NCBI RefSeq assembly: GCF_009931435.1
Contig: NZ_CP043414.1
Source: Escherichia coli
GTDB lineage: Bacteria; Pseudomonadota; Gammaproteobacteria; Enterobacterales; Enterobacteriaceae
Length of the DNA stretch: 64,000 nt
Reading direction: 5' to 3' (one strand)
The translations under genes were made by a program, and so were the position numbers. Below are positions 36,684 to 63,602 of the stretch, one piece after another; position 1 is the first letter of the stretch, and each line of letters starts with the position of its first letter. The notes under the pieces were generated by a model. It had not been told where the DNA came from. It saw only the letters and a program-made list of their open reading frames with translations, and did not search any database.

Positions 36684-37538
36684 TTACACCAACGCCCCGT
36701 AAATCGTCAGTAGCGCAATTACCACCACGACCACGAACGAGGTTTTCTTCGCCATGGAAACCGCTGCCTTCGGCGTCTCCACCTTATCGACATGCGGTTC
36801 ACGCGCCAGAGAGAACTGTGCCAGACGTGTTAATACCTGATATTGCGAAGTATGGAAATCACCCAGCGAAGCAAACCAGGCCGGTAACGCTTTTTCCCCA
36901 TGACCGATCAAGGCATATACCACACCCGCAAGACGAACCGGCACCCAATCCAGTACATGAAGCACGGCATCAATGCCGGACTGTAAACGATGATGCGGCG
37001 TCTGGTAACGCGCCAGCCAGTATTGCCATGCACGCAAAAACGCATACCCCATCAGCGTAACGGGTCCCCAGGTTCCCCCCACAATCAGCCAGAACAACGG
37101 AGCAAGATAAAAACGAAAGTTAATCCACAGCAATGCATTTTGCAGCTCACGCAAATACTCACGTTCATCGCAGCCTGCTGGGACGCCGTGAATCATGGTG
37201 AGTTCGCCAGCCATCGTGGCACGGGCATGGCTATCATTACGTGAAGCAGCTGTCAGATAAGCATGATAATGAAGACGAACTTTACCTGCGCCAATACACA
37301 GCAAACCAATCAGCAGCCACACCAGCAGCGTGGGAACGTTGAACAATACTCCCTGCAATGCGCGTAACAGTAAAAAAGTCACGCCCATCGCAATAATGGT
37401 CATGCCTAATGTGCGCCCGAGAGAAAAATGTTTCACCCGCCGGAAGAACGCCTCAAGACGATGATCAAGCTGCCAGTGCTCGCCCAGCTTAAACAGGCGC
37501 TCGAAAATTAACACCAATAGGGTTGTAAACAGCGTCAT
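36684..37538 (-). CDS. ampE: Inner-membrane protein AmpE
   Basis: 284 aa from [31 protein letters not shown]; ATGA overlap with ampD stop. Confidence 0.9.
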
Positions 37539-38086
37539 GTTGTCTCCTTGCTGACCAGGGCGCGAAACCGTGCCCAATCAAAGGCGGGGCCGGGATCGGT
37601 TTTCCGATCCGGCGCAATATCACAATGGCCCGTCATGTTATTAGCGATATCTGGATAGCGATCAATCAGTGCCCGCGTAACCGCCGCAAGCTGTTGATAC
37701 TGCGCATCGGTATACGCCAGCGTATCGGTGCCTTCCAGCTCAATCCCAATAGAAAAATCATTGCAGCGTTCGCGCCCCTGATACTGAGAGACTCCGGCAT
37801 GCCAGGCACGTTTATCGAAAGGAACATACTGGACTATTTCACCATCGCGGCGAATCAAACAGTGAGCGGAGACGCGCAAATGGGCGATCTCAGCAAAGAA
37901 AGGATGTGCCTGCGGATCAATAGTTCCAGTGAATAATGCGTCGATCCACGGACCGCCAAACTCGCCTGGCGGCAGGCTAATATTGTGCACCACCAGCAGG
38001 GTGGGTGTTTCGTCATCCGGGCGGCAATCGTAATGTGGTGAGGGAACGCGGCGCGCGCCAACCAGCCACCCCTGTTCTAACAACAT
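37535..38086 (-). CDS. ampD: 1,6-anhydro-N-acetylmuramyl-L-alanine amidase
   Basis: 183 aa, [25 protein letters not shown]; amidase_2 family. Confidence 0.95.
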
Positions 38087-38113
38087 GCAGGATCTCCTTA
38101 TATGTGGTGCTAA

Positions 38114-39067
<954 letters not shown>

Positions 39068-39269
39068 TTGCTGACAGATTTATCCGCTCCATCGCGGGCG
39101 GATAATCTCCCCTTTCCCAACTTTCTTCGTAACGCCTCGCAAATTTCTTGTCTTTCGCTGCAACGTAATAAAAAACTCCGGAAGCTGCTTTCCCGTTTCG
39201 TTTTTTGCCCCTCGCTTGTGCTGATGGCGTTTGCCAAAGTAGCGCCAACCAAATCAAGGAGCGAAACAA

Positions 39270-39710
39270 ATGGACAAGCAACGCGGTTTTACACTTATCG
39301 AACTGATGGTGGTTATTGGCATCATTGCCATTTTAAGCGCCATTGGTATTCCCGCTTATCAAAACTACCTGCGCAAAGCCGCACTCACCGACATGCTACA
39401 AACCTTTGTGCCTTACCGTACCGCCGTAGAGTTGTGCGCGCTGGAACATGGTGGATTAGATACCTGCGACGGTGGCAGCAATGGCATTCCCTCGCCTACC
39501 ACCACCCGCTATGTTTCAGCCATGAGTGTGGCAAAGGGCGTGGTGTCGCTGACCGGGCAAGAAAGTCTCAATGGGCTAAGCGTCGTTATGACACCGGGTT
39601 GGGATAACGCAAACGGCGTCACCGGCTGGACGCGCAACTGCAATATTCAAAGTGACAGCGCATTGCAGCAAGCCTGCGAAGATGTCTTTCGCTTTGATGA
39701 CGCCAACTAA
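39270..39710 (+). CDS. ppdD: Type IV prepilin (prepilin peptidase-dependent pilin)
   Basis: 146 aa; MDKQRG-FTLIELMVVIGIIAILSAIGIP prepilin leader and hydrophobic N-terminal helix. Confidence 0.9.
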   Translation: MDKQRGFTLIELMVVIGIIAILSAIGIPAYQNYLRKAALTDMLQTFVPYRTAVELCALEHGGLDTCDGGSNGIPSPTTTRYVSAMSVAKGVVSLTGQESLNGLSVVMTPGWDNANGVTGWTRNCNIQSDSALQQACEDVFRFDDAN

Positions 39711-39719
39711 GGAGCGGCA

Positions 39720-41117
39720 ATGAATATTCCACAGCTCACCGCCCTGTGTCTGCGTTATCAGGGAGTCTTGCTGGATGCCAGCGAAGAGGTGGTTCATGTT
39801 GCGGTGGTTGATGCCCCTTCGCATGAGCTACTGGACGCATTGCATTTCGCTACCACCAAACGTATTGAGATCACCTGCTGGACGCGCCAACAAATGGAAG
39901 GTCACGCCAGTCGCACCCAACAGACATTGCCCGTAGCTATTCATGAGAAGCATCAGCCCAAAGCAGAGTTGCTGACTCGAACGTTACAATCTGCGCTGGA
40001 ACAACGCGCGTCTGATATTCATATCGAACCAGCGGACAATGCCTACCGCATCCGCTTGCGTATCGACGGTGTATTGCATCCTTTACCGGATGTTTTACCG
40101 GATGTTTTACCGGATGCCGGAGTCGCATTAACCGCCAGATTAAAAGTGCTGGGCAACCTGGATATTGCGGAACATCGCCTGCCGCAGGACGGGCAATTCA
40201 CTGTCGAACTGGCAGGAAACGCCGTCTCATTTCGTATTGCGACCTTACCATGCCAGGGTGGTGAAAAGGTGGTATTAAGGTTGTTACAGCAGGTGAGCCA
40301 GGCACTGGATATCAACACGCTGGGGATGCAGCCGTTACAACTGGCGGACTTTGCTCATGCCTTGCAACAACCACAGGGACTGGTGCTGGTAACTGGCCCT
40401 ACAGGCAGCGGCAAAACGGTCACGCTTTATAGTGCCCTGCAAACGCTGAATACCGCTGACATTAATATTTGTAGCGTCGAAGATCCGGTTGAGATCCCCA
40501 TAGCCGGACTAAACCAGACGCAAATCCATCCGCGTGCCGGTCTTACCTTTCAGGGCGTTTTGCGTGCGTTATTGCGCCAGGACCCTGACGTCATCATGAT
40601 CGGAGAGATCCGCGATGGCGAAACAGCAGAGATCGCTATTAAAGCGGCGCAAACCGGTCACCTGGTGTTGTCTACCCTACACACCAATTCCACCACTGAA
40701 ACGCTGGTACGTTTACAGCAAATGGGAGTCGCCCGCTGGATGCTCTCATCGGCGCTTACGCTGGTAATAGCCCAGCGTCTGGTACGCAAACTTTGCCCGC
40801 ATTGTCGCCAGCAGCAAGGGGAGCCCATCCATATTCCAGACAATGTATGGCCGTCGCCGCTGCCCCGCTGGCAAGCACCCGGTTGTGTACATTGCTACCA
40901 CGGTTTTTATGGTCGCACGGCCTTATTTGAAGTTCTGCCCATAACACCGTTCATACGTCAGCTTATTTCCGCTAATACCGACGTTGAATCGCTGGAAACG
41001 CACGCCCGACAGGCGGGTATGCGAACGCTTTTTGAAAACGGCTGCCTGGCCGTGGAGCAAGGCTTAACCACCTTTGAAGAGTTAATCCGCGTATTGGGAA
41101 TGCCGTATGGCGAGTAA
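39720..41117 (+). CDS. hofB: Type IV pilus assembly ATPase (GspE/PilB family)
   Basis: 465 aa; Walker A GPTGSGKT; C-terminal CxxC pairs; follows ppdD. Confidence 0.9.
   Translation: MNIPQLTALCLRYQGVLLDASEEVVHVAVVDAPSHELLDALHFATTKRIEITCWTRQQMEGHASRTQQTLPVAIHEKHQPKAELLTRTLQSALEQRASDIHIEPADNAYRIRLRIDGVLHPLPDVLPDVLPDAGVALTARLKVLGNLDIAEHRLPQDGQFTVELAGNAVSFRIATLPCQGGEKVVLRLLQQVSQALDINTLGMQPLQLADFAHALQQPQGLVLVTGPTGSGKTVTLYSALQTLNTADINICSVEDPVEIPIAGLNQTQIHPRAGLTFQGVLRALLRQDPDVIMIGEIRDGETAEIAIKAAQTGHLVLSTLHTNSTTETLVRLQQMGVARWMLSSALTLVIAQRLVRKLCPHCRQQQGEPIHIPDNVWPSPLPRWQAPGCVHCYHGFYGRTALFEVLPITPFIRQLISANTDVESLETHARQAGMRTLFENGCLAVEQGLTTFEELIRVLGMPYGE
40083..40118 (+). repeat. In-frame 12-bp tandem repeat (3 copies) in hofB encoding LPDV-LPDV-LPDA
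   Basis: TTACCGGATGTT x2 then TTACCGGATGCC. Confidence 0.9.
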
Positions 41118-42309
41118 GCAACTCTGGCGCTGGCGTGGCATAACCGGCGACGGCAATGCGCAAGATGGGATGCTATGGGCAGAGAGCCGTGCTTTGCTGC
41201 TCATAGCACTACAGCAACAGATGGTTACCCCACTTAGCCTGAAGCGAATCGCCATCAATTCTGCGCAGTGGCGAGGAGATAAAAGCGCGGAAGTCATTCA
41301 TCAACTGGCGACGCTACTCAAAGCCGGGTTAACGCTTTCTGAAGGGCTGGCACTGCTGGCGGAACAGCATCCCAGTAAGCAATGGCAAGCGTTGCTGCAA
41401 TCGCTGGCGCACGATCTCGAACAGGGCATTGCTTTTTCCAATGCCTTATTACCCTGGTCAGAGGTATTTCCGCCGCTCTATCAGGCAATGATCCGCACGG
41501 GGGAATTGACTGGTAAGTTAGATGAATGTTGCTTTGAACTTGCTCGACAGCAAAAAGCCCAACGTCAGTTAGCCGATAAAGTGAAATCAGCGTTGCGTTA
41601 TCCCATCATCATTTTAGCGATGGCAATCATGGTGGTTGTGGCAATGCTGCATTTTGTACTGCCGGAGTTTGCTGCTATCTACAAGACCTTTAACACCCCA
41701 TTACCGGCGCTAACGCAGGGGATCATGACGCTGGCAGACTTTAGTGGCGAATGGGGCTGGCTGCTGCTGTTGTTCGGCTTACTGCTGGCAATAGCCAATA
41801 AGTTGCTGGTGCGCCGCCCGACCTGGCTCATCGTGAGGCAAAAATCACTGTTACGCATCCCAATTATGGGTTCACTGATGCGAGGGCAAAAACTCACGCA
41901 GATCTTTACGATTCTGGCGCTGACACAAAGTGCAGGCATTACTTTTTTACAGGGCGTAGAGAGCGTCAGAGCAACAATGCGCTGTCAGTACTGGGAGCAA
42001 CTTCTGACACAAATCCAGCACGATATCAGTAACGGTCATCCTATCTGGCTGGCGCTAAAAAATGCCGGTGAGTTTAGCCCGCTCTGTTTGCAATTAGTGA
42101 GAACAGGAGAGGCATCCGGTTCGCTGGATCTCATGTTAGACAACCTCGCCCGTCATCATCGGGATAACACCATGGCGCTGGCGGATAACCTTGCAGCCTT
42201 GCTCGAACCGGTGTTGCTGGTCATAACGGGAGGAATTATCGGTACGCTAGTGGTGGCAATGTATTTGCCAATTTTCCATTTAGGCGATGCGATGAGTGGG
42301 ATGGGATAA
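41107..42309 (+). CDS. hofC: Type IV pilus inner-membrane platform protein (GspF/PilC family)
   Basis: 400 aa; 11-nt overlap with hofB; GspF-like membrane protein. Confidence 0.9.
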   Translation: MASKQLWRWRGITGDGNAQDGMLWAESRALLLIALQQQMVTPLSLKRIAINSAQWRGDKSAEVIHQLATLLKAGLTLSEGLALLAEQHPSKQWQALLQSLAHDLEQGIAFSNALLPWSEVFPPLYQAMIRTGELTGKLDECCFELARQQKAQRQLADKVKSALRYPIIILAMAIMVVVAMLHFVLPEFAAIYKTFNTPLPALTQGIMTLADFSGEWGWLLLLFGLLLAIANKLLVRRPTWLIVRQKSLLRIPIMGSLMRGQKLTQIFTILALTQSAGITFLQGVESVRATMRCQYWEQLLTQIQHDISNGHPIWLALKNAGEFSPLCLQLVRTGEASGSLDLMLDNLARHHRDNTMALADNLAALLEPVLLVITGGIIGTLVVAMYLPIFHLGDAMSGMG

Positions 42310-42310
42310 C

Positions 42311-42334
42311 GCTGGCGTGTTACTCCACGCCAGC
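42311..42334. terminator. Hairpin between convergent hofC and guaC
   Basis: GCTGGCGTG-TTACTC-CACGCCAGC perfect 9-bp stem; weak U-tract. Confidence 0.45.
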
Positions 42335-42343
42335 ATTGGGAGA

Positions 42344-43387
42344 TTACAGATTGTTGAAGATGCGGTTTTCTTGTTCCTGTACACGGATAAATGTGGTGCG
42401 CTTGGTCAGCTCTTTCAGGCGTGCAGCCCCAACGTATGTACAAGCTGAACGCAGGCCGCCCAAAATATCACGCGCGGTATTTTCAACCGGGCCTCGCAGC
42501 GGCAGCTTAACGGTTTTACCTTCTGCTGCGCGATATTCCGCAACGCCGCCAACGTGACGTTTCATCGCAGACTCGGAGCTCATGCCGTAGAACAGCATAA
42601 ATTTCTCGCCGTTCTCCTCAACGATGCGACCACCGCTCTCTTCGTGGCCCGCCAGCATGCCGCCAAGCATGACGAAATCGGCACCGCCGCCAAAGGCTTT
42701 CGCGACATCGCCCGGCGTGGTGCAGCCACCGTCGCTGACGATCATTCCGCCCAGACCATGCGCAGCATCGGCACATTCGATCACCGCAGAAAGTTGCGGA
42801 TAACCGACGCCTGTTTTGACGCGAGTTGTACAAACAGAACCTGGGCCAATGCCAACTTTAACGATATCAGCACCGGAGAGGATAAGCTCCTCACACATTT
42901 CACCTGTCACGACGTTGCCAGCACAAATGGTTTTGGTCGGCCACGCTTCACGCGCTTTCGCAACGAACTGCACGAAGTGTTCGGAATAACCATTCGCCAC
43001 GTCAATACAAACGAAGTTTAATGCCGGGTTCAGGTCGAGAATCTGTTTAGTTTTTTCGAAGTCCGCATCAGACGTACCGGTAGAAACCATCACATGTTTC
43101 AGCACATCAGCGGAAGAATTGTTGATAAACGCTTGCCACTCTTCGACAGAATAGTGTTTATGCACAGCAGTCAGAATATCAAAAGAAGCCAGCGCAGAGG
43201 CCATAGAAAATGTGCCTACGGTGTCCATATTTGCGGCGATAATCGGCACGCCGGACCAGCTCTGACCTGAATGTTTGAAGGTGAATTGACGTTCCAGTTC
43301 AACATCGGAACGGCTTTTAAGAGTGGAGCGTTTAGGGCGGATGAGAACGTCTTTAAAACCTAACTTCAGATCTTCTTCAATACGCAT
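42344..43387 (-). CDS. guaC: GMP reductase
   Basis: 347 aa; IMPDH/GMPR family with active-site Cys in [11 protein letters not shown]. Confidence 0.95.
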
Positions 43388-43611
43388 GTGCGGATTCCTG
43401 GGGTTAATGGCTATAAGGGTAAGAGCGCAACTCCAGTGACGCTATCATACGCACTAATCAATGCGGCGCAAGACTGCGAAATTGTCTTTTTTTACGCTAC
43501 AATCCCATAAATTTACCTGGTAAATAGTGAGCGAACGTTTCATCAATTTCGCTTTCGTGCGCTCATTTTTAACGTTTTGATAATCATGATGAATTCCCGG
43601 GAATATAAATT

Positions 43612-44232
43612 ATGAGGTATATAGTTGCCTTAACGGGAGGCATTGGCAGTGGCAAGAGTACCGTTGCCAATGCGTTTGCTGATCTCGGAATTAACGTCAT
43701 TGATGCCGATATTATTGCGCGTCAGGTGGTTGAACCAGGTGCACCTGCGCTACATGCAATTGCTGATCACTTTGGCGCTAACATGATTGCTGCTGATGGA
43801 ACATTGCAGCGCCGGGCCTTGCGCGAGCGGATTTTCGCCAACCCGGAAGAGAAAAACTGGCTTAACGCCCTGCTGCATCCGCTGATTCAGCAAGAGACGC
43901 AACACCAGATCCAGCAAGCATCTTCCCCCTATGTACTTTGGGTTGTGCCATTGCTGGTAGAAAACTCATTGTATAAAAAAGCGAATCGAGTGCTGGTGGT
44001 GGATGTCAGCCCAGAAACGCAACTTAAACGCACCATGCAGCGCGATGATGTCACTCGCGAGCATGTTGAACAAATTCTTGCTGCTCAGGCAACGCGCGAA
44101 GCCCGCCTTGCCGTGGCAGATGACGTCATTGATAATAACGGCGCACCGGATGCTATCGCATCGGATGTTGCCCGCCTGCACGCACACTATTTGCAGCTTG
44201 CGTCGCAGTTTGTCTCACAGGAAAAACCGTAA
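43612..44232 (+). CDS. coaE: Dephospho-CoA kinase
   Basis: 206 aa; P-loop GGIGSGKST. Confidence 0.95.
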
Positions 44233-44975
44233 TGCAGACCCAGGTCCTTTTTGAACATCCACTAAATGAAAAAATGCGTACATGGCTGCGCATTGAGTTT
44301 TTGATTCAGCAACTCACCGTTAATCTACCCGTCGTTGACTACGCTGGCGCTCTGCATTTCTTCCGCAATGTCAGTGAATTACTGGATGTTTTCGAGCGCG
44401 GCGAAGTCCGTACTGAGCTGTTGAAAGAACTTGACCGCCAGCAGCGCAAACTCCAGACCTGGATTGGCGTGCCTGGCGTGGACCAGAGCCGTATTGAAGC
44501 ATTAATTCAGCAGTTAAAAGCGGCGGGGAGCGTATTAATTTCCGCGCCGCGTATCGGGCAATTTCTGCGTGAAGATCGTTTGATTGCTCTGGTGCGTCAG
44601 CGACTGAGCATCCCAGGCGGCTGTTGTAGCTTTGATTTACCTACATTGCACATTTGGCTGCATCTACCCCAGGCGCAGCGCGACAGCCAGGTAGAAACCT
44701 GGATTGCCAGTCTGAACCCGCTCACCCAGGCACTTACCATGGTGCTGGATTTAATTCGCCAGTCGGCCCCCTTCCGTAAACAAACCAGCCTGAATGGTTT
44801 TTATCAGGATAACGGTGGCGATGCCGACTTGCTGCGCCTGAATCTGTCGCTCGATTCACAGCTTTATCCGCAAATTTCCGGTCATAAGAGCCGTTTTGCC
44901 ATTCGTTTTATGCCGCTGGACAGTGAAAACGGACAGGTACCGGAACGTCTGGATTTCGAACTGGCCTGTTGCTAA
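44232..44975 (+). CDS. zapD: Cell division protein ZapD (Z-ring associated)
   Basis: 247 aa, [24 protein letters not shown]; start overlaps coaE stop. Confidence 0.9.
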
Positions 44976-44984
44976 GGAGTAAAA

Positions 44985-45179
44985 ATGTCAGAAACTATTA
45001 CGGTGAATTGCCCAACCTGCGGGAAAACGGTGGTGTGGGGTGAAATCAGCCCGTTTCGGCCATTTTGTTCCAAACGTTGTCAGCTGATCGACCTAGGAGA
45101 ATGGGCTGCTGAAGAAAAACGAATCCCCAGCAGTGGCGATCTTTCCGAAAGCGATGACTGGAGCGAAGAGCAGAAGTAA
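44985..45179 (+). CDS. yacG: DNA gyrase inhibitor YacG (zinc-finger)
   Basis: 64 aa with CPTCGK...CSKRCQ zinc-binding cysteines. Confidence 0.85.
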
Positions 45180-45202
45180 TTGGGTGTAAAAGGTGAGATG
45201 TT

Positions 45203-45306
45203 GTCGGATGCAGCGCGAACGCCTTATCCGACCTGCAAGATCTTTTATATCAATGTGTTAAAAAATTGTAGGCCTGATAAGACGCGCCAGCGTCGCATCA
45301 GGCATC
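45203..45306. repeat. REP cluster between yacG and mutT
   Basis: GTCGGATGCAGCGCGAACGCCTTATCCGACC and GTAGGCCTGATAAGACGCGCCAGCGTCGCATCAGGCATC, canonical REP palindromes. Confidence 0.85.
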
Positions 45307-45335
45307 CAGTGTAAATGTTGGATGCCTTAACCGAT

Positions 45336-45725
45336 CTACAGACACTTAAGCTTCGCAATTACCGGTTCATTGGCTGGCGGAAAATCATCTGCATTGAGGC
45401 TGGCCTGTGAAATCCACTCACCGGGTTGCCCTTCTTTACCCCACGGCTCCCCTTCCCAGCTTTCGACCAGCCAGAACCACAGTGTTATATGCCTGTCCGG
45501 GAATTCATATTCCAGTTTTTCAAATAGCGAATAATGTTGTGGGGTAATCCCGACTTCTTCCTGAAGTTCACGCACCACCGCCTGTTCCGGCGTTTCGCCC
45601 ATTTCAATTTTACCGCCAGGAAACTCCAGTTTATTCGCCATGTGCGCATCTGCGGCGCGACGGGTTATAAAGATTTCATTGTTCTCGTTGCGAATAATAC
45701 CTACCGCAATTTGCAGCTTTTTCAT
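45336..45725 (-). CDS. mutT: 8-oxo-dGTP diphosphatase (Nudix)
   Basis: 129 aa; Nudix box GGKIEMGETPEQAVVRELQEEVGI. Confidence 0.95.
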   Translation of the reverse strand: MKKLQIAVGIIRNENNEIFITRRAADAHMANKLEFPGGKIEMGETPEQAVVRELQEEVGITPQHYSLFEKLEYEFPDRHITLWFWLVESWEGEPWGKEGQPGEWISQASLNADDFPPANEPVIAKLKCL

Positions 45726-45740
45726 TGTCTTAAACCTATA

Positions 45741-45767
45741 AAAAAGGCGCAGAATCCTGCGCCTTTT
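45741..45767 (-). terminator. Rho-independent terminator after secA
   Basis: AGGCGCAG-AATC-CTGCGCCT stem flanked by A-run (plus) / T-run (minus). Confidence 0.7.
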
Positions 45768-45783
45768 GTTTCAAGAGTTAGCT

Positions 45784-48489
45784 TTATTGCAGGCGACCGT
45801 GGCACTGCTTGTATTTTTTACCAGAACCGCACGGGCAAGGATCATTACGTCCAACTTTGCGTTCACCGGTTTGTGCCGCCAGTGCAGCTGCGGCTGCAGA
45901 GTCATCATCCTGATGGCTAAGCTGCTGCATTTGCGCTAAACGCTCGGCTTCCATACGACGCTGTTGTTCCAGCTCTTCAACCTCTTCAGGCATACGTACC
46001 TGGACTTTGCTCAGCGTGCTGATGACTTCATATTTCAGCGACTCCAGCATCGCTGCAAACATGGAGAACGATTCACGTTTGTATTCCTGCTTCGGATCTT
46101 TCTGTGCATAGCCACGCAGGTGGATACCCTGACGCAGATAATCCATCGCCGCCAGGTGCTCTTTCCACAGGGAGTCAAGCGTTTGCAGCATGACGCCTTT
46201 CTCGAAGTGACGCATCATCTCAGCGCCAACCACTTCTTCTTTACGCTGATACACTTCGATGGACTGCGCCAGAATACGCTCACGCAGCGTCTCTTCATGC
46301 AGTTCTGGCTCTTTGTCCAGCCACTCGGCAATCGGCAAATCGAGGTCGAAATCGTTCTTCAGACGTTCCTGCAGCCCCGGAATATCCCACATTTCTTCCA
46401 GCGACTGCGGCGGAATGTAGGCATCGATGGTCGCTTTGAACACATCTTCACGAATGCTGTTGATGGTATCGCTCACATCGCTGACATCCAGCAGTTCATT
46501 ACGCTGGGAGTAAATAGCGCGACGCTGATCGTTAGCCACGTCATCATATTCCAGCAGTTGCTTACGAATATCGAAGTTACGGCTTTCAACTTTACGCTGA
46601 GCGTTGGCAATCGCTTTGGTCACCCACGGGTGCTCGATGGCTTCGCCTGGTTTCATACCCAGTTTACGCATCATGCCGGAAACACGGTCAGAAGCAAAAA
46701 TACGCATCAGCGCATCTTCCATCGACAGGTAGAAACGGGAAGAACCGGCATCCCCCTGGCGCCCAGAACGACCGCGTAGCTGGTTATCGATACGACGAGA
46801 TTCGTGACGTTCTGTACCGATGATATGCAGACCACCTGCAGCCAGTACCGCATCGTGACGCACCTGCCAGTCGGCTTTGATTTTTTCAATTTGCTCTGCG
46901 GTCGGATTTTCCAGCGCGGCAACTTCTGCCTGCCAGCTACCACCGAGCACAATATCTGTACCACGACCCGCCATGTTAGTCGCGATAGTCACCGCCGCCG
47001 GATAACCCGCTTGTGCAACAATCGCTGCTTCGTTAGCGTGGAATTTGGCGTTCAGAACGTTGTGTTTGATACCGGCTTTGGTCAGCTCGTTTGACACCAA
47101 TTCCGATTTTTCGATGGAGATAGTACCCACCAGCACTGGCTGGCCCTTCGCAGTACGCTCTTTGATATCTTCGATGATCGCCTGGATTTTTTCCGCTTCA
47201 GTCATATAGACCAGATCTGGCAGATCTTTACGAATCATCGGACGGTTGGTTGGAACAACAACGGTATCCAGCTTGTAGATTGAGCTAAATTCGAAAGCTT
47301 CGGTATCAGCAGTACCGGTCATGCCCGCCAGTTTTTCATACAAACGGAAGTAGTTCTGGAAGGTGATCGACGCCAGCGTCTGGTTTTCGTTCTGGATCTG
47401 TACACCTTCTTTCGCTTCCACTGCCTGATGCAGGCCATCGGACCAGCGACGTCCCTGCATGGTACGACCGGTGTGTTCATCAACGATGATAACTTCACCA
47501 TCTTTAACGATGTAGTCTACGTCACGGGTAAACAGTGCGTGAGCACGCAGCGCCGCGGTTACGTGGTGCATCAGCATAATATTAGCCGGAGAGTACAGCG
47601 ACTCACCTTCATCCATGATGCCTTCTTTCACCAGCAGCTCTTCGATCAGCACCAGACCACGTTCGGTCAGGTTCACCTGGCGAGATTTTTCGTCCACCGA
47701 GAAGTGGCCTTCGCCCTGGAAGGTTTCGGAGTCTTCTTTTTCCTGACGGATCAGGTGCGGAATAATTTTATTCACGCGTTTATACATTTCCGAGCTGTCT
47801 TCTGCCGGGCCGGAAATGATCAGCGGTGTACGCGCTTCATCGATCAGGATGGAGTCCACTTCGTCCACCAGCGCATAGTGCAGTTTACGCTGTACACGTT
47901 CTTCAGGGCTGAACGCCATGTTATCGCGCAGGTAGTCAAAGCCGTATTCGTTGTTCGTACCGTAAGTGATGTCAGCTGCGTAAGCTTCACGCTTCGCCGG
48001 TGCTGGCATACCCGGCAGGTTGATACCGACAGTCAGGCCAAGGAATTCAAACAGCGGACGGTTGTTTTCGGCGTCACGTTGCGCCAGGTAGTCGTTGACG
48101 GTAACAACGTGTACGCCCTTACCGGTTAATGCGTTCAGGTAAGCAGGCAGCGTTGCGGTCAGGGTTTTACCTTCACCGGTACGCATTTCCGCGATGCAGC
48201 GTTCGTTAAGAACCATACCGCCGAGTAACTGAACGTCGAAGTGACGCATACCAAAGACGCGCTTACTTGCCTCACGCACCACAGCGAAAGCTTCTGGGAT
48301 CAGATTTTCCAGCACTTCGCCTTTTTCCAGACGTGCACGAAACTCTGCGGTTTTCCCTTTCAGTTCTTCGTCGGAGAGTTTTTCCATCTCCGGTTCCATG
48401 GCATTGATGATGTTGACGACTTTGCGCATCCGGCGCAGGGTGCGATCGTTACGACTACCGAAAACTTTAGTTAATAATTTGATTAGCAT
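45784..48489 (-). CDS. secA: Preprotein translocase ATPase SecA
   Basis: 901 aa, [25 protein letters not shown]; C-terminal zinc site [14 protein letters not shown]. Confidence 0.97.
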
Positions 48490-48550
48490 AATAAAATCTC
48501 AAACGCCCCGCGTTGCGGAGTCAATAAAATGAAGTAAAGGTTTATTGTTG

Positions 48551-49268
<718 letters not shown>

Positions 49269-49293
49269 ATTTTATACGACAGTATAAATGTCG

Positions 49294-50232
<939 letters not shown>

Positions 50233-50311
50233 CTATCCAACCGAAGTGTACTATACATTCGGCGGGCCAGTTTAGCACAAAGAGCCTCGAAACCCAAATT
50301 CCAGTCAATTC

Positions 50312-51463
50312 TTAATCAGCTTGCTTACGCAGGAATGCTGGGATATCCAGATAATCCGGCTCTTTCGCAGTTTGCGGCGCATTGTCATTCACGACTTTAG
50401 CAACCGGCTTCTGCTCCTGGGTCAGCGGAGCCATCCCGTGCTGCTGGTAGCGATCCATCACTGGCTGCTGAACCTGCTTATTGGTCACCAGAGTGATTTC
50501 AGGACGTTTGTCCATACCGATACCTGTCGCAACAACAGTTACGCGCAGCTCGTCATTCATATCCGGGTCAAGAGAAGTACCGATAACGACAGTTGCGTTG
50601 TCGGATGCAAATGCACGGATGGTGTTACCTACCGTTTCGAACTCATCCAGACGCAGGTCGAAGCCCGCCGTGATGTTAACCAGCACGCCGCGCGCGCCAG
50701 ACAGATCGATATCTTCCAGCAGCGGAGAGGAAATAGCCATTTCAGCAGCTTCTTCCGCACGGTCTTCGCCGCTCGCCACACCAGAACCCATCATTGCGTA
50801 GCCCATTTCAGACATTACGGTACGTACGTCTGCAAAGTCCACGTTCATCAGGCCTGGACGAGTAATCAGTTCAGCGATACCTTGCACAGCACCTTTCAGT
50901 ACATCGTTCGCTGCGCCAAATGCATCCAGCAGGGAGATACCGCGGCCCAAGACTTTCAGCAGTTTGTCGTTAGGGATAGTGATCAGAGAGTCCACATGCT
51001 TGGACAGTTCAGTGATCCCCTGCTCAGCGAATGCCATACGCTTCTTGCCTTCAAAGTTGAAAGGCTTAGTCACGACAGCAACGGTCAGGATCCCCAAATC
51101 TTTTGCCACTTCAGCGACAACTGGTGCTGCACCAGTACCGGTACCACCACCCATACCCGCAGCAATAAAGACCATGTCTGCACCTTCCAGCGCCGCACGC
51201 AGTGCATCGCGATCCTCATCAGCCGCATTACGGCCAACTTCTGGATTTGCGCCAGCTCCCAGTCCTTTGGTGATACCGCTACCGATTTGAATCGTCTGTC
51301 CAACCGCTGTTTTACGCAGCGCTTGTGCATCGGTATTTACCGCGAAGAATTCAACACCTTCAATGCGCTCGCGCACCATGTGTTCAACAGCATTACCGCC
51401 GCCGCCGCCGACGCCGATGACTTTAATCACCGCGTCATTGGTAAGTTCCATTGGTTCAAACAT
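50312..51463 (-). CDS. ftsZ: Cell division GTPase FtsZ
   Basis: 383 aa; tubulin signature GGGTGTG. Confidence 0.98.
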
Positions 51464-51523
51464 AGTTTCTCTCCGATTTGTGCCTGTCGCCTGAGGCCGT
51501 AATTATCGTCGACCTCATAAAAA

Positions 51524-52786
51524 TTAAAACTCTTTTCGCAGCCAACTATTGAGTCGCTTGATCCACGAGCCAACTGATGCTGTAACACGTTTTTCTACTT
51601 CAGCTTCACCGTTAAGATGTGACTCTTTCCCGTAGTGAAGCAATCCCACCGCCGTCGAATAATACGGCTCCTGAGCATAATCCGTTAAACCGGTAATGTT
51701 CAGCGGCGCGCCGATACGCACTTGCGTATGAAACACGCGCTGAGCACAGGCTGCAAGACCTTCGATCTGCGCTGCGCCACCAGTTAAAACAATGCCTGCC
51801 GCCAGGTGATGTTTAACCCCTTGTTGGCGAAGCTTTTCCTGCAACTGCAATATCTCTTCGTTGACCAGGTTGAGCAGCTCGGTATAGCGCGGCTCGATCA
51901 CCTCTGCCAGGGTCTGACGTTGCAGACTCCGCGGTGGACGACCGCCTACGCTCGGCACTTCCACGCTCTCATCTTTTCCAACGATGGAACCCAGCGCACA
52001 ACCGTGGCGAACTTTAATCGCTTCGGCGTCGCTTGGCGGCGTGCCAAAGGCGTAAGCGATATCACTGGTCACGACATTGCCAGCATAAGGAATTACCTTA
52101 GTGTGGCGCAATGCCCCACCGGTATAAACGGCGATATCCATTGTACCACCACCGATATCGACGACGCAGACACCCAGTTCACGTTCATCTTCCGTCAATA
52201 CCGAATAACTTGATGCCAGTCCGGCAAATATCAGTTGGTCAACTTTCAGCCCACAACGTTCAACCGCTTTGACGATGTTTTTCGCCATATCGTTGTGACA
52301 TGTGATCAGGTGCACTTTTGCCTGCATCCGCACGCCCGAAAGTCCTACCGGATTCTTGATCCCTTCCTGATAGTCAATCGCATACTCTTGCGGGATCACA
52401 TGCAGCACACGATGCTCATCGCGCACACGCACTGATTTCGCGGTATGGACGACGTTTTCCACATCTTCTTGCGTCACTTCTTCTTCAGAAATAGGCACCA
52501 TACCAATTTCATTCTGGCAGCTGATGTGCTTACCAGAAAGCGCCAGATATACCGAAGAGATCTGACAATCTGCCATCAATTCTGCCTGGTCAATGGCGCG
52601 TTGTACGCACTTGACCACGGATTCGAGGTCGTTCACCCCGCCTTTATCCATACCACGCGACGGGCAGCTGCCCACGCCAATGATATTGACCATACCGTCG
52701 GGCAGAACTTCCCCTACTAAAGCGGCAACCTTCGCGGTACCAATCTCCAGTCCTACTACCAGTTTTCTGTCCGTCGCCTTGATCAT
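51524..52786 (-). CDS. ftsA: Cell division protein FtsA (actin-like ATPase)
   Basis: 420 aa, [26 protein letters not shown]. Confidence 0.97.
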
Positions 52787-53613
52787 TGTTGTTCTGCCTG
52801 TGCCTGATTTTGTTGCTGAGTAGATTCCTCTGGCGGCAAAGGCGCCCAGCCTACTGCCGCTCCAGAGTCATAACGCAAATCAACGTAGCTAATCCGTTTG
52901 CCATCGGTTTGCGCCTGCTGCTGTAAAACCGGATAAAGTTCTACAAAGCGAGCCAAACGTTTCATCGTATCGCCCCGGCCAAGATTGAGCTTAATATCGT
53001 TATTCAGCGTCAACTGCCAGGAACGCCGCGCGGTCATCGCCGCTTCCTTCAGAGTAAATCTGTCCTTTGCCAGCATCTGCCCCATTTCGCGATAGCCCTG
53101 CAACACTTCATTGGCGCTGCCTTCCGGGCCATACAGCATTGGAAGCACCTGCTTGCTGGTGCGATCTGGTGGTACGCTGAAAGTGTTTCCTTCCGCGTCT
53201 ACCATATGTTGATCATTCCACCGCGCAATCGGCACATATTCAACCAGATGAATCTTCAATTCATCAGGCCACTGCTTTCTGACGCTCACCTGCTTAATCC
53301 ACGGCAGGCGTTGTTCTATTTGCGTCTGGATGATGTTGACATCCTGGGTCATAAAGGTACCTGGCTCACCCAATGCCAGGATCGACTGCCGGATATCGTC
53401 ATTACGCGTGTAATGGCGTTCACCGGTCAACACCAGCTTTGAGAGCGGCAGGCGTTGCGCATCTTCCATCCAGCCCAACACGACCCAGCCGCTCACCAAC
53501 ACTGTCGTTAAAACGGTCAGCAGGAAAAGGATCCCCGCCAGACGCGTTCCATTATTGCGGCGAGAAGAAACCTCTTCTTCGCTGTTTCGCGTGTTCAGAG
53601 CAGCCTGCGACAT
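52783..53613 (-). CDS. ftsQ: Cell division protein FtsQ
   Basis: 276 aa, single TM then POTRA domain; ATGA overlap with ftsA. Confidence 0.95.
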
Positions 53614-53614
53614 A

Positions 53615-56003
<2,389 letters not shown>

Positions 56004-56056
56004 TCTTTACGCCATTAACTTCTTACATTCATACGATGCAAAAGGCATCGCTACAA

Positions 56057-57124
56057 TTACGCCCGGGCAGCCCGGCTCACTTCATTTGCCACTCGCTCGG
56101 TGGCATCCGGAATGGATGCAGCACGGGCGCGTTCTGCCATGGTTAATAAGGTTTCTCGCGACCACCCGGCCAGGGTGTTGGCGACAGCATCCACAGTAAG
56201 CTGTGGCTGCTCGATAATTTTGGCTGCGCCCGCTTTTTCCAGCGGTAGCGCATTCCAGTATTGCTGGCGGTCTTTATGTTGAAACGGCACAAACAATGCC
56301 GGTAGCCCCGCTGCGGCAATTTCACTCACCGTTAACGCACCGGAGCGGCAAACGACGACATCCGCCCACGCATACGCCGCCGCCATATCATCAATAAATT
56401 CCGTCACTTTATGCTGCGGTTGCCCCGCTTCCGCATACGCCTGTTCAACGGATTGTTGCGAACCTTTGCCGCTCTGATGCCAGATAGTGACTGAATCGCC
56501 CAGCTTTGCTGCAACCTGCGGCATTGTTTGGTTAAGAATACGAGCGCCCTGAGAACCGCCCACTACCAACACACGAACCGGACCTTCACGACCAGCCAAA
56601 CGTTGCTGCGGCAGTGGCAACGCCAACACATCGGTACGAACAGGATTACCCACCACTTCCGCATTAGGGAAAGCGCCTGGAAACGCCTGCATCACTTTGG
56701 TGGCAATCTTCGCCAGCCATTTATTGGTTAAGCCCGCAATACCGTTTTGTTCATGAAGTACAACCGGAATGCCTAACGACCACGCTGCCAGTCCACCTGG
56801 ACCTGATACGTAGCCGCCCATACCGAGCACCACATCAGGTTTGAACGCTTTCATAATCGCCCGTGCCTGACGCCAGGCGTTAAAAATACGCAGAGGCGCA
56901 GCTAACAGTGCTTTTATACCTTTACCACGCAGACCAGAGATACGAATGAAATCAATTTCGATGCCATGTTTTGGCACTAAGTCCGCTTCCATACGGTCGG
57001 CAGTCCCCAGCCAGCGAACTTGCCAACCCTGAGCCATTAGATGGTGCGCAACCGCCAGTCCCGGGAACACATGTCCACCGGTTCCGCCGGCCATCACCAT
57101 TAATCGCTTTCCTTGACCACTCAT
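56057..57124 (-). CDS. murG: Lipid II-forming GlcNAc transferase MurG
   Basis: 355 aa, [29 protein letters not shown]. Confidence 0.97.
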
Positions 57125-58365
57125 CGTGAACCTCGTACAAACGCCTGCGCTTTCTCCAGACGCGTTTCATAATCAATACGCAACAGCATCATGATGGCTG
57201 TCGACATAATCAGTAAGCTCGAACCACCGTAACTGATCAGCGGCAATGTCAGACCTTTGGTCGGTAACATCCCCGCTGCCGCGCCTACGTTAACCAGTGC
57301 CTGGAAACTAAACCAGATGCCAATGGAACAGGCGAGAAAACCGGAAAAACGATGGTCAATTTCTAATGCTTTACGGCCAATCGACATCGCACGAAAAGCG
57401 ACGAAGAATACCATTAAAAGTGCCAGCACCACACCGACATACCCCAGTTCTTCGCCGATAATGGCGAAAATAAAGTCAGTGTGTGCTTCCGGCAGATACT
57501 CCAGTTTTTGAACCGAGTTACCTAAACCTTGCCCCCACAGTTCGCCGCGACCAAACGCCATCAGCGATTGCGTTAACTGATAGCCGCTACCAAAGGGATC
57601 TTCCCACGGATTCCAGAATGCGGTAACACGGCGGATACGGTACGGTTCGGCGAGGATCAGTAACACAACCGCTGAAATCCCCATGCCGATAATGGCAATG
57701 AACTGCCACAATTTCGCCCCCGCCAGGAACAACATCGCCAGCGTGGTCACAAACAGCACCACCACCGTACCAAGGTCTGGCTGTGCCAGCAGTAACACTG
57801 CCAACACCAAAATCACGCCCATCGGTTTCAAGAAGCCGCGCAGGTTATTACGCACTTCGTCGCCTTTACGCACCAGATAGTTGGCGATATAGCAAAACAG
57901 CGACAGTTTTGTCAGCTCCGCAGGCTGGATACGCAGCAAGCCGAGATCGATCCAACGCGATGCCCCTTTAACAGAGCTACCCACTACCAGAACGATCATC
58001 AACAGGATGATTGAACCGAGTAGCATCGTAGCGCTGTAACGTTGCCAGAACTCCATCGGCAGACGCAGCGTAATGATCGCCAGAATGAACGCCAGGATCA
58101 GGTAGACGCCATCACGCTTAGCGAAGAAAAAGGGATCGTTAGTCAAGCGTTGTCCGATAGGCATTGATGCGGACGTCACCATGATAAAGCCGATCGCCGC
58201 GAGGCCGAAGGTCAGCCACAGTAAGGTGCGATCGTACATGATCAGGCTGTCGGTATCTTTTTCCCGCGAGCCCATCACCCAGCCCTTTAGCGCCGTGGAG
58301 ATCCAGACCAGGATACTGAATCCTGGCAGGCGCGGCATTTTCAGGCGAGGGAGAGATAAACGCAT
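57121..58365 (-). CDS. ftsW: Peptidoglycan glycosyltransferase FtsW (SEDS family)
   Basis: 414 aa from [26 protein letters not shown]; ATG at 58365 overlaps murD stop (ATGA); track start is an upstream TTG. Confidence 0.95.
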
Positions 58366-59681
58366 CAACCTAACTCCTTCGCCAGACGGGCAAACTCATT
58401 GCCTCGTTGTTCAAAGTTCTTGAATTGATCAAGGCTGGCACAGGCCGGGGAGAGCAGAACCATATCTCCTGGTTGAACACGCGGAGCCAGCAAGCGCATC
58501 GCCTGTTCCATGGTTTCGGTTTGTTCTGCCACTTCCGGGCGCAGTGCCGCCAGCTGTGCGCCGTCACGACCGAAACAATACAAACGTACGTTATCGCCAT
58601 TCAGGTAACGTGCCAGCGGACTAAAGTCCGCCGATTTACCATCGCCGCCCAGCAACAAATGCAGCGTGCCATCTACGTGCAGGCCATTGAGCGCCGCTTC
58701 CGTACTGCCGACATTGGTCGCTTTCGAGTCGTTAATCCAGCGCACACCGTTATGTTCCAGCACCACTTCAAAGCGATGCGGTAGACCAGTGAACGTAGTT
58801 AACGCTTTCAGGCTACTGGCGCGTGGCAAACCAGCTGCGTCTGCCAGAGCCAGTGCCGCCAGCGCATTGGTGTAGTTATGCTGACCGGAAAGTTTCATCT
58901 CTTTCACGTTCAACACTTTCTCGCCTTTCACCCGCAGCCAGGTTTCACCCTGCTGATGATTCAAGTGATAGTCGCCCATATTGATACCAAAGCTAACGCA
59001 ACGTTCATCCGCACCACGAATCGGCATTGTTAAGGCATCATCAGCATTAACCACGCAAACTTTCGCATTTTCATAAATGCGCAGTTTTGCCGCACGATAC
59101 TGCTGTAAACCAAATGGATAGCGATCCATATGATCTTCTGTCACGTTCAGAATGGTCGCTGCCACCGCCTGTAAACTGGAGGTGGTTTCCAGCTGGAAGC
59201 TCGACAGCTCGAGCACGTACAGTTCGCACTCAGCATCCAACAGCATCAACGCGGGCAGGCCAATGTTGCCACCCACGCCAACGTTAACGCCCGCCGCTTT
59301 CGCCATTTCACCCACTAGTGTGGTGACCGTGCTTTTGCCATTAGAACCGGTGATCGCCACGATTGGTACTTGTGCTTCACGACAGAACAGTTCGATATCG
59401 CCAACAATTTCGATTCCGGCATCAGCGGCAGCGCTTAAGGAAGGATGCGCCAATGCAATGCCGGGACTGGCGACGATCAGATCAGCCGCCATCAGCCAGT
59501 CGTCATTAAGACCGCCCGTGTGGCGTTCTACGGCTTCGGGTAATTTATCCAGGCCAGGCGGTGTCATCCGCGTATCCATGACGCGCGGCGTCACACCGCG
59601 AGCGAGGAAAAAGTCCACGCAAGAAAGCCCGGTGAGGCCCAGGCCGATAATGACGACATTTTTACCCTGGTAATCAGCCAT
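58365..59681 (-). CDS. murD: UDP-N-acetylmuramoylalanine--D-glutamate ligase
   Basis: 438 aa; Mur ligase P-loop GSNGKSTVT. Confidence 0.97.
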
Positions 59682-59683
59682 GA

Positions 59684-60766
59684 TTAACGTACCTTCAGCG
59701 TTGCCAGACCAATCAGGACCAGCATCAGCGAAATAATCCAGAAGCGCACAATGACACGCGGTTCCGGCCAGCCTTTCAGTTCATAGTGGTGATGAATCGG
59801 TGCCATGCGGAAAATACGTTGTCCGCGCAGTTTAAAGGAGCCGACCTGCAGGATGACGGAAAGCGTTTCTACCACGAACACGCCCCCCATAATCACCAGC
59901 AGGAATTCCTGACGCAGCAGCACGGCGATAATGCCCAGCGCGCCACCTAACGCCAGCGAACCTACATCGCCCATAAAGACTTGCGCCGGATAGGTGTTAA
60001 ACCACAGGAAGCCCAGCCCTGCCCCGACTATCGCGGTACAGACAATGACCAGTTCCCCGGCGTGTCGCAGATACGGTATGTGTAAATAGCTGGCAAAGTT
60101 CATGTTGCCGGTTGCCCATGCCACCAGCGCAAAACCACCGGCGACGAATACAGTCGGCATAATCGCCAGGCCATCAAGACCATCGGTCAGGTTTACCGCG
60201 TTGCCGGTGCCCACAATGACGAAGTAAGCCAGCAGAATGTAGAACAGCCCCAACTGCGGCATCACATCTTTAAAGAACGGGACCACCAGCTGCGTTGCGG
60301 GCGTGTCTTTCCCGGCAAGATACAGCGCAAAGGCAACGCCCAGCGCGATCACCGACATCCAGAAATACTTCCAGCGCGCAATCAGGCCCTTGGTGTCTTT
60401 ACGCACCACTTTGCGATAGTCGTCGACAAAACCAATGATGCCGTAACCCACCAGCACCACGAGTACGCACCAGACGTACGGGTTGGAAGGGTAAGCCCAC
60501 AGCAGCACGGAGATCACAATCGCTGTCAGGATCATAATCCCGCCCATGGTCGGCGTACCGCGCTTGCTGAAGTGTGATTCAGGACCGTCGTTACGCACTA
60601 CCTGACCAAAGGAAAGTTTTTGCAAATGAGCAATCATGCGCGGGCCCATCCACAATGAGATGAACAGCGCAGTCAGCAGGCTGACGATGGCGCGAAACGT
60701 CAGATAGGAAAAGACGTTAAAGCCGGAATAATATTTGACCAAATGTTCGGCCAGCCAAACTAACAT
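59684..60766 (-). CDS. mraY: Phospho-N-acetylmuramoyl-pentapeptide transferase
   Basis: 360 aa polytopic membrane protein, [30 protein letters not shown]. Confidence 0.97.
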
Positions 60767-62118
60767 GTCCCATTCTCCTGTAAAGCGCGTACTACCTCTT
60801 CCATGGCAGCACTACGTGAACCCTTAACTAAAATCGTAATTACCTGTTGCTCAGCAATCAGTGATTTAAGACGTGTGATAAGCGCAGTTTTATCGGCAAA
60901 ATGTTCACCAACGCCGCTGGCGGTACTGATAGCATGGCTTTGTTTACCCACACTTAACACGCGGTCAATACCCGCCGCCTTCGCCGCTTCGCCCACCTGT
61001 ACATGGCAGGCCTCGCTTTCAGCGCCCAGTTCCGCCATATCGCCCACCACCAGCACACGGTAGCCCGGCATTTCAGCCAGTACCTGAACAGCGGCGGTCA
61101 TGGAGCCGACGTTAGCGTTGTAGGAGTCGTCGAGCAGCAACTGATTTTCCGCCAGTTGAATGGGGAACAGACGGCCAGGAACAGCTTTCAGATTTGCCAG
61201 CCCCGCTTTAATAGCATCAAGCGTTGCGCCCACGGACATGGAGAGCGCAGCGGCTGCCAGCGCATTCGCAATATTGTGACGCCCCGGCAACGGCAGCAGA
61301 ACATCGACGCTACCCGTTGGGGTTTGCAGCGTAAATTCCGTACCGTGCGAGGTCACGTGGATATTGGTGGCGGTGAAATCGCTGTTGTTAGCATTCGGTG
61401 AGAAGCGCCACACTTTGCGTGAGCCAATCACACTCTGCCAGTTCAGCCAGTCGTTGTTGTCGGCATTCATAATGGCGATACCGTTTTCCGGCAGGCCGCT
61501 AAAGATTTCACCTTTCGCTTTCGCGACACCCGCAAGCGAGCCAAAACCTTCCAGATGCGCCGCTGCCAGGTTGTTGACCAGCGCCGCTTCCGGGCGAGTC
61601 AGACTCACAGTCCAGGCAATTTCGCCCTGATGGTTCGCGCCAAGTTCAATTACTGCGTAATCGTACTCTGGCGTTAAGCGCAACAGCGTCATCGGTACAC
61701 CGATGTCGTTGTTGAGATTGCCTGCCGTATAAAGCGTGTTGCCACACTGGCTTAAAATCGCTGCCGTCATCTCTTTAACGGAGGTTTTGCCGGAGGAACC
61801 GGTCAGAGCAACCACGCGCGCCGGAACTTGCTGGCGAACCCATGCAGCCAGTTCACCAAACGCCAGACGAGTATCCTTGACGATTACCTGCGGCAGATCG
61901 ATATCCAGCGGACGGCTAACCAGTAGTGCCCCCGCACCGCCAGCTTTCGCCTGGTCAGCAAAATCATGGGCATCGAAACGTTCGCCTTTCAGGGCAACAA
62001 ACAGGCAACCCGGCGTCAGTTTTCGCGTGTCAGTGGTTACAGCATCAAGGGTGATATCTGCCCCTTTTAGTTCACCGTTGAGAATATCGGTAAGTTGGCT
62101 AAGGGTTACGCTAATCAT
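60760..62118 (-). CDS. murF: UDP-MurNAc-tripeptide--D-alanyl-D-alanine ligase
   Basis: 452 aa; Mur ligase P-loop GSSGKTS. Confidence 0.97.
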
Positions 62119-63602
62119 GCAATTACCCCCAGCAGACGCGCTACCGTGACGCGATCGGAATAGTCGAGACGCTGATTGCCAACAATCTGGTAATCTTCAT
62201 GGCCTTTGCCCGCGACCAGTACCACATCGTTCTCTTTAGCCTGCATAACGGCGCAAGTCACCGCTTCAGCGCGGCCTTCCATCACTTTGGCATGTCCGGC
62301 ATCTAACATTCCCGCCAGAATATCGTTGATGATGGCACGCGGCTCTTCGGTACGCGGGTTATCGTCCGTCACCACCGCCACGTCAGCAAACTCTTCAGCA
62401 ATTGCTCCCATCAGTGGACGCTTACCTTTATCGCGATCGCCACCACAGCCAAAGACGCACCACAGCTTGCCCGCACAGTGCAAACGCGCCGCCTGTAAGG
62501 CTTTTTCCAGTGCATCTGGCGTATGCGCGTAATCCACCACTACCGTCGGTTTGCCTGGCGCAGTGAACACTTCCATACGTCCACAAACCGGCTGCAGGCG
62601 TGCGGCAGTTTTCAGCAGGTCAGCCAACGGATAGCCCAGCGCCAGCAGCGTCGCCAGCGCCAGCAGCAAGTTGCTGACGTTAAAAGCGCCCATCAGATGG
62701 CTTTCAATTTCGCCATCGCCCCAGCTTGAGCTAAAGCGAATAGTCGCACCGCTGTCGTGATAGTTCACTTCAGTCGCTTTCAACCAGCGTCCGTGACAGT
62801 TCGGATTGATATGATCTTCCATTGATACCGCAACCGCGTCCGGCAGTTTTGCCAGCCAGCGGCGGCCCACTTCATCGTCGGCGTTAATAATCGCCTGACC
62901 GCAATGATGCTCAGAATAAAGCAGCCATTTCGCGGCTTCGTAGTGTTCCATATCACCATGATAATCAAGGTGATCGCGGCTTAAGTTGGTAAAGACCGAC
63001 GCCGCAAATTTCAATGCCGCCACACGGTGCTGTACCAGTCCGTGGGAGGAAACTTCCATTGCGCAAAAAGTCGCGCCCTGATCCACCAGTCCCGCCAGCT
63101 CATGCTGAACATCGACTGCCGAACCGGTGGTATTTTCTGTCGGGATCACTTTTCCCAGCAGGCCGTTACCAACAGTCCCCATTACCGCGCTGGTTTCGCC
63201 AAGCAGTTGGCTCCACTGCGCCAGCAGCTGGGTAGTCGTGGTTTTGCCGTTGGTGCCCGTTACGCCCACGAGACGTAAATTGTCAGAGGGTTCATGGTAA
63301 AAGCGGCCCGCCAGTGCAGATAAACGCTCATTGAGCTGGCTGAGATAGATGACTGGTACGCCGTGCATTTCACGGATTTCACCGTCGGTCGCCTCATCTT
63401 TCGCCTCTGCAATAATGGCAGCCACACCTTGCGCTATCGCCTGCGGGATATATCGACGCCCGTCCGCCTGATGACCTACTACAGCTACAAAGAGATCGCC
63501 CGCCGCAGCCACACGGCTGTCGAGTGTCATCTCTCGCAGTGCTCGCGAAGGTGCGTCTGGCACCCACGGAGCAAGAAGGTCGCGCAAATTACGATCTGCC
63601 AC
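62115..63602 (-). CDS. murE: UDP-MurNAc-L-Ala-D-Glu--meso-diaminopimelate ligase
   Basis: 495 aa; Mur ligase P-loop GTNGKTTTT. Confidence 0.97.

Follow-up and report, generated by a model that had tools for sequence, protein, structure and literature searches.

Among the closest described systems to the locus treated here are the PilB ATPases of type IV pilus assembly and GspE/EpsE. Structures have been solved for PilB (Geobacter PilB 5TSG/6OLJ, 5ZFR) and for V. cholerae GspE/EpsE (1P9R, 4KSS), and all are strongly homologous to residues 76-459 of HofB, with which they share the arrangement of an RIDGVL strand, a loop and a (S/T/A)R(I/L)K helix. PilB differs in having a longer N-terminal region, whereas the N-terminus of HofB is short and MshEN-like. 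A tetracysteine CxxC...CxxC motif is typical of these assembly ATPases, and the hofB operon is expressed upon Sxy/CRP-S induction. In E. coli the HofB protein serves as the ATPase in a reconstituted pilus assembly system (10.1101/856302), and in EHEC the haemorrhagic coli pilus has PpdD as its pilin, growth on Minca medium being a condition in which the operon is expressed (PMC2920817). The K-12 HofB protein (b0107, annotated 'type II secretion system protein GspE') is the orthologue of the protein described below, with 97% protein identity, the same domains and motifs and the same ampD-nadC-ppdD-hofB-hofC-guaC context.

We have analyzed a window of 64,000 nucleotides of E. coli DNA. The hofB gene (hcpB; annotated gspE) is found on the plus strand of this window at 39720-41117 as an intact open reading frame coding for a PilB/GspE-family type IV pilus assembly ATPase of 465 amino acids, the length which had been given in an earlier note on this DNA. 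It is preceded by the first gene of the operon, ppdD (hcpA, 39270-39710, plus strand), which codes for a type IV prepilin of 146 amino acids with N_methyl and Pilin domains, and followed by hofC (41107-42309, plus strand), which shares its first 11 bases with the end of hofB and codes for a T2SSF-family platform protein of 400 amino acids. The gene order ampE-ampD-nadC-ppdD-hofB-hofC-guaC-coaE is that of K-12. HofB scores 483.1 bits against the Pfam profile T2SSE (PF00437; cut-off 24.9), residues 76-457 being aligned with positions 3-370 of the 370 in the profile, and residues 8-69 are recognized by Pfam as a weak MshEN-like N-terminus. The solved structures nearest to HofB are the PilB ATPases (E about 1e-104), followed by GspE/EpsE (E about 1e-98). 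The Walker A motif GPTGSGKT occupies G226-T233 and the four cysteines are C359, C362, C389 and C392; in 40 aligned orthologues the Walker A motif and C362, C389 and C392 are invariant, and C359 is kept in at least 90%. Judged by profile, motifs and its pilin and platform neighbours, HofB is a T2SS/T4P assembly ATPase of the GspE/PilB type. In some public E. coli assemblies the genes of the operon appear to be fused, ppdD to hofB (576 amino acids, N_methyl plus T2SSE) or hofB to hofC (596-702 amino acids, T2SSE plus T2SSF); together these are the proteins P0016, P0018, P0059, P0073 and P0074, and their arrangement suggests that a stop codon was lost, or the frame shifted, where neighbouring genes are joined by a short or overlapping junction.

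The feature which sets this hofB apart is found at 40083-40118, where three 12-bp units follow each other head to tail, TTACCGGATGTT TTACCGGATGTT TTACCGGATGCC, and code for LPDV-LPDV-LPDA (the segment HPLPDVLPDVLPDAG in the translation of the open reading frame). Unit 1 (40083-40094) and unit 2 (40095-40106), both on the plus strand, read TTACCGGATGTT and give Leu-Pro-Asp-Val, and either of them can be counted as the extra copy relative to alleles with two units. Unit 3 (40107-40118, plus strand) reads TTACCGGATGCC and gives Leu-Pro-Asp-Ala; its counterpart in K-12 is TCACCGGATGCC, Ser-Pro-Asp-Ala. With Tandem Repeats Finder one array is detected here, which extends over 40082-40116 and has a period of 12, 2.9 copies, 100% matches and 0 indels. 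The earlier note had described a 12-bp tandem repeat coding for three copies of LPDV, and both the sequence and the program bear this out, the last unit being LPDA. The tract is also the longest perfect short-lag self-match of the window, with 23 consecutive matches at lag 12; the maximum in 100 first-order Markov simulations was 14, so the repeat is beyond what is expected by chance.

Other repeats are present in the window. A second 12-bp tandem repeat, AATCCCCTTCTC in four copies with 97% matches, is located at 9276-9323 in an open reading frame on the minus strand (9150-10070), where it codes for EKGI four times near the C-terminus of a 306-amino-acid Rpn/YhgA-like protein (Pfam Transposase_31). 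A 96-bp repeat (2.4 copies, 86% matches) covers 27154-27385. A 303-bp repeat (2.7 copies) at 30289-31103 corresponds to the part of the pyruvate dehydrogenase E2 gene which codes for its three lipoyl (Biotin_lipoyl) domains in tandem, an identity taken from the gene calls of a near-identical locus (L006).

The location of the repeat in the protein was approached with an AlphaFold2 model, which was used for placement of secondary structure only and, with a mean pLDDT of 70 and values of about 62 near the repeat loop, is moderately reliable. The model has a strand at 118-121 (VLHP), a loop at 122-130 and a helix at 131-146 which begins with the Pro-Asp-Ala of unit 3. The solved PilB sequence RIDGVLYEV---MKPPLK-LKNAITSRIK is aligned to RIDGVLHPLPDVLPDVLPDAGVALTARLK of HofB; compared with PilB the three-unit allele has four additional residues in the loop, and the two-unit allele has the canonical length. 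The earlier note had placed the repeat in the N-terminal domain. This is right in so far as it belongs to the N-terminal N2 sub-domain of the T2SSE region (76-457), but it is outside the separate MshEN-like domain (8-69). In 104 of 106 full-length representatives of orthologue clusters, including Escherichia, Citrobacter, Salmonella, Enterobacter, Kosakonia and Lelliottia, the segment from RIDGVL to (S/T/A)RLK is 15 residues long while its sequence varies widely; of the two which deviate, one is the protein of the window, with 19 residues. Among these representatives the LPDV/xPDA pseudo-repeat occurs in Escherichia only. Since the length is fixed at 15 despite the variable sequence, alleles of other lengths are possibly not fully neutral: comparison of the orthologues suggests that the length of the loop may be constrained and that an insertion may not be neutral.

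The hofB gene of K-12 MG1655 (annotated gspE, WP_001025145.1) is 1,386 bp and codes for 461 amino acids, the length given in the earlier note. Alignments of both protein and DNA contain one gap of 12 bases or 4 residues, situated at the repeat, and this is the sole length difference between the two genes, which makes the four amino acids exactly one repeat unit, as had been proposed. K-12 carries two units and not three; its site reads TTACCGGATGTT TCACCGGATGCC (LPDV-SPDA), where the two units differ at three positions and the second one is imperfect, having a TCA codon for Ser. The closest complete genome, Z0117EC0005, has TTACCGGATGTT TTACCGGATGCC (LPDV-LPDA), where the period of 12 is kept perfectly over 23 nt. 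The hofB gene of the window differs by 5 SNPs from this Leu-type two-unit allele and by 48 SNPs from K-12, and over the 7.4 kb at 36720-44117 K-12 and the window differ at 209 sites.

The number of units carried by other strains was examined in the complete E. coli genomes in RefSeq (n=5,426, a set which excludes Shigella and draft assemblies). The gene was found in 5,424 of them and spans 1,386 bp in all 39 full-length rows among the matches listed. With a 121-base repeat probe the best matches were 109/121, which corresponds to a gap of 12 bases. A 54-base probe, used with an E-value limit which can be passed only by a single long piece, detected three or more units in none of the 5,426 genomes. 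The same probe placed the perfect two-unit Leu form in about 97 of the 5,426, a minority allele; this number is a lower bound since the probe needs exact flanks. These 97 had the appearance of full 54-base matches; each of the listed ones is made up of two pieces which overlap and span 42 bases.

An allele with one unit exists as well. With a synthetic one-unit probe 7 complete genomes gave a full-length match in a single piece; their hofB is 1,374 bp and codes for 457 amino acids, and the protein (WP_032314426.1) is identical in the two genomes that were compared, one from a human isolate from the US and one from a bovine isolate from Japan. Sources of the complete genomes of this lineage are cattle or bovine faeces and, in one case, a human stool sample. 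The one-unit gene is separated from K-12 by 4 SNPs and from the window by 45. Because the three-unit and one-unit alleles are carried by different haplotypes, the duplication and the deletion are independent events, and as read from the alignment an 8-bp homology, ACCGGATG, sufficed for the deletion on the Ser background. In alleles with one, two and three units the flanks are collinear and the gaps are exactly 12 or 24 bases at the repeat; the alleles of 457, 461 and 465 amino acids are open reading frames, every one of them.

The three-unit protein is rare in public data. The exact 465-amino-acid sequence has several NCBI accessions, one labelled 'MULTISPECIES [Escherichia]', and is present on at least 24 contigs in NCBI, ENA and Logan, three of which are longer than 1 Mb (the two sources of these counts read different subsets, giving 16 versus 24 read from 31 blocks). 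Another three-unit locus (L003, GCA_036246705.1) has 2 differences from the window in 7,398 bases. The three-unit DNA was absent from the GTDB representatives, one genome per species, in an exact-pattern scan, and from JGI metagenome contigs in a scan in which the last unit could have either Leu or Ser. The lineage of the window itself is missing from the complete RefSeq E. coli genomes, the best match over 20 kb of conserved dcw-secA DNA (42400-62400) being only 98.8%.

A protein constructed by removing one unit from that of the window was found by exact look-up to exist (P0138, WP_302301024.1), and it is encoded by two assemblies, GCA_030511265.1 and ERR14064360 (two-unit loci L006 and L007). 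Besides the 12-bp gap, the first is separated from the window by 3 SNPs in 21.4 kb and the second by 1 SNP in 9.3 kb. With two-unit and three-unit DNA this nearly identical, the copy number must have changed inside a single clone. In all five comparison loci, including L003, L006 and L007, position 42424 inside guaC (42344-43387, minus strand) is A where the window has C, a SNP private to the window. Exact look-ups of whole proteins returned 456 contigs for the Z0117 protein, at least 1,000 for the K-12 protein and 747 for the one-unit protein. In the collection of 15 billion proteins searched in the same way, the window protein with one or with four units was absent, as were the three-unit protein with His463 and the Z0117 and K-12 proteins with one unit added; all these look-ups of hypothetical alleles being empty, there is no evidence for a recurrent origin.

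Short tandem repeats can be mis-assembled, and a third unit could in principle be a sequencing or assembly artefact. A tract of 36 bp is far below read length, the L003 DNA carries three units too, and the identical protein occurs on contigs which were assembled independently and come from several sources, three of them more than 1 Mb long; because of these at least 24 contigs the allele, rare as it is, is not an assembly error, and we give an artefact practically no credence. The direction of the change is a separate matter. If three units were ancestral in the clone, GCA_030511265.1 and ERR14064360 would be two-unit revertants formed by deletion, and it speaks for this that direct repeats lose a unit by deletion at least as easily as they gain one by duplication and that the two-unit form is the rarer one in the clone (2 versus at least 24 contigs). 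A step from two to three would be required anyway, and a later reversion would be an additional event. Since two units are found throughout the outgroups (Z0117EC0005, K-12 and all representatives of Escherichia, Citrobacter and Salmonella), the parsimonious order would be a two-to-three duplication in the ancestor of the three-unit subclade, and reversion appears unlikely.

The existence of three copy numbers within the species, together with a copy-number difference between near-identical genomes, might bring to mind a contingency locus, in which frequent changes of copy number would switch or tune the pilus motor. This we regard as very improbable. The 12-bp unit is four codons, so a frameshift is impossible and all alleles are intact; copies number only 1-3; among complete genomes three or more units are never seen, and one unit is seen in seven with a single identical protein; no expansion has taken place in the approximately 97 complete genomes with perfect two-unit tracts or on the 456 contigs of the Z0117 type; and neither four-unit proteins nor three-unit proteins on other backgrounds were present in the 15-billion-protein collection. 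Of the properties by which phase variation is recognized, a shift of frame or of promoter spacing and high length variation among strains, none was found. A less drastic possibility is that the loop-length alleles are functional and selected, the N2 loop altering the dynamics of the HofB hexamer or the binding of a partner and thereby pilus or DNA-uptake activity. The 15 residues fixed in 104 of 106 representatives suggest constraint, 747 contigs carry the one-unit allele, and the three-unit subclade (at least 24 contigs) has been sampled more than its two-unit sister (2 contigs). Hitch-hiking in successful or heavily sampled clones would explain the abundance of these alleles equally well; each allele is one protein sequence on one haplotype, convergent recurrence was not found, and the sequence of the loop is poorly conserved. 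Selection on loop length is in our opinion distinctly unlikely. It is likewise doubtful that the alleles form a natural series, in a loop of otherwise constant length across Enterobacteriaceae, in which those of other than normal length impair or re-tune the PpdD/HCP motor of their clones, with effects on adhesion, twitching or DNA uptake.

The reading we prefer, and which is very probably correct, is a recent in-frame 12-bp tandem duplication by replication slippage, now a stable clonal indel polymorphism rather than a regulatory switch. Most E. coli have TTACCGGATGTT-TCACCGGATGCC (LPDV-SPDA) at the site, a pseudo-repeat arisen by chance, and this would be the starting state. Replacement of C by T, and so of Ser by Leu, would have turned it in a minority haplotype into the perfect 23-nt period-12 tract TTTACCGGATGTTTTACCGGATG, and in one clone of this Leu haplotype the nascent strand would have slipped back one unit, leaving a third copy. 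The outcome is a HofB of 465 amino acids with four extra residues (LPDV) in the strand-helix loop, a surface loop of the N2 sub-domain; reading frame, catalytic motifs and neighbouring genes are unaffected and the allele is stably inherited within the clone. The order of events, Ser to Leu first and gain of a unit second, fits slippage. The additional 12 bp, their position, their confinement to one clone and the independent one-unit deletion can be read directly from the genomes; that slippage was the mechanism and that the allele has no functional role is what we infer. The three-unit allele is most likely neutral or mildly deleterious. The earlier note had suggested slipped-strand variation in copy number; one, two or three units do occur across strains, and the variation is rare and clonal, not frequent.

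Nothing points to a new mechanism or system, and the allele is an ordinary slippage variant of little importance beyond bookkeeping. It does offer a well-polarised case in which a point mutation from Ser to Leu perfected a chance pseudo-repeat before it was duplicated by slippage, at a site which also underwent an independent deletion. The two indels have potential as lineage markers: the 12-bp insertion could identify the clone of the window, which is absent from complete genomes, and the 12-bp deletion a lineage that has been sampled widely. The alleles are moreover a natural test of whether the N2-domain loop needs a given length in PilB-type ATPases; should those of other than normal length impair or re-tune the motor, they would be natural hypomorphs or markers of a cryptic pilus system in ongoing decay.

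Compared with the known systems, the difference from K-12 HofB is two units (LPDV-SPDA) against three (LPDV-LPDV-LPDA), together with the SNPs spread across the gene. The allele of strains 2014C-3061, 13E0780, 13E0725 and OkiPb01680/83/88/700 (WP_032314426.1, 457 amino acids) is similar in being an in-frame 12-bp indel of one unit in the same repeat which is inherited clonally; it differs in being a deletion, in its K-12-like Ser haplotype and in being far more widely sampled (747 contigs). With contingency loci and VNTRs the hofB repeat shares the head-to-tail arrangement and a number of units which depends on the strain through slipped-strand mispairing, and it is a slipped-strand repeat of the VNTR type: the copies are perfect, the differences are whole units and near-identical genomes differ. 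It departs from such loci in having only 1-3 copies, in remaining in frame, in its very low variability and in having no on/off or promoter-spacing effect.
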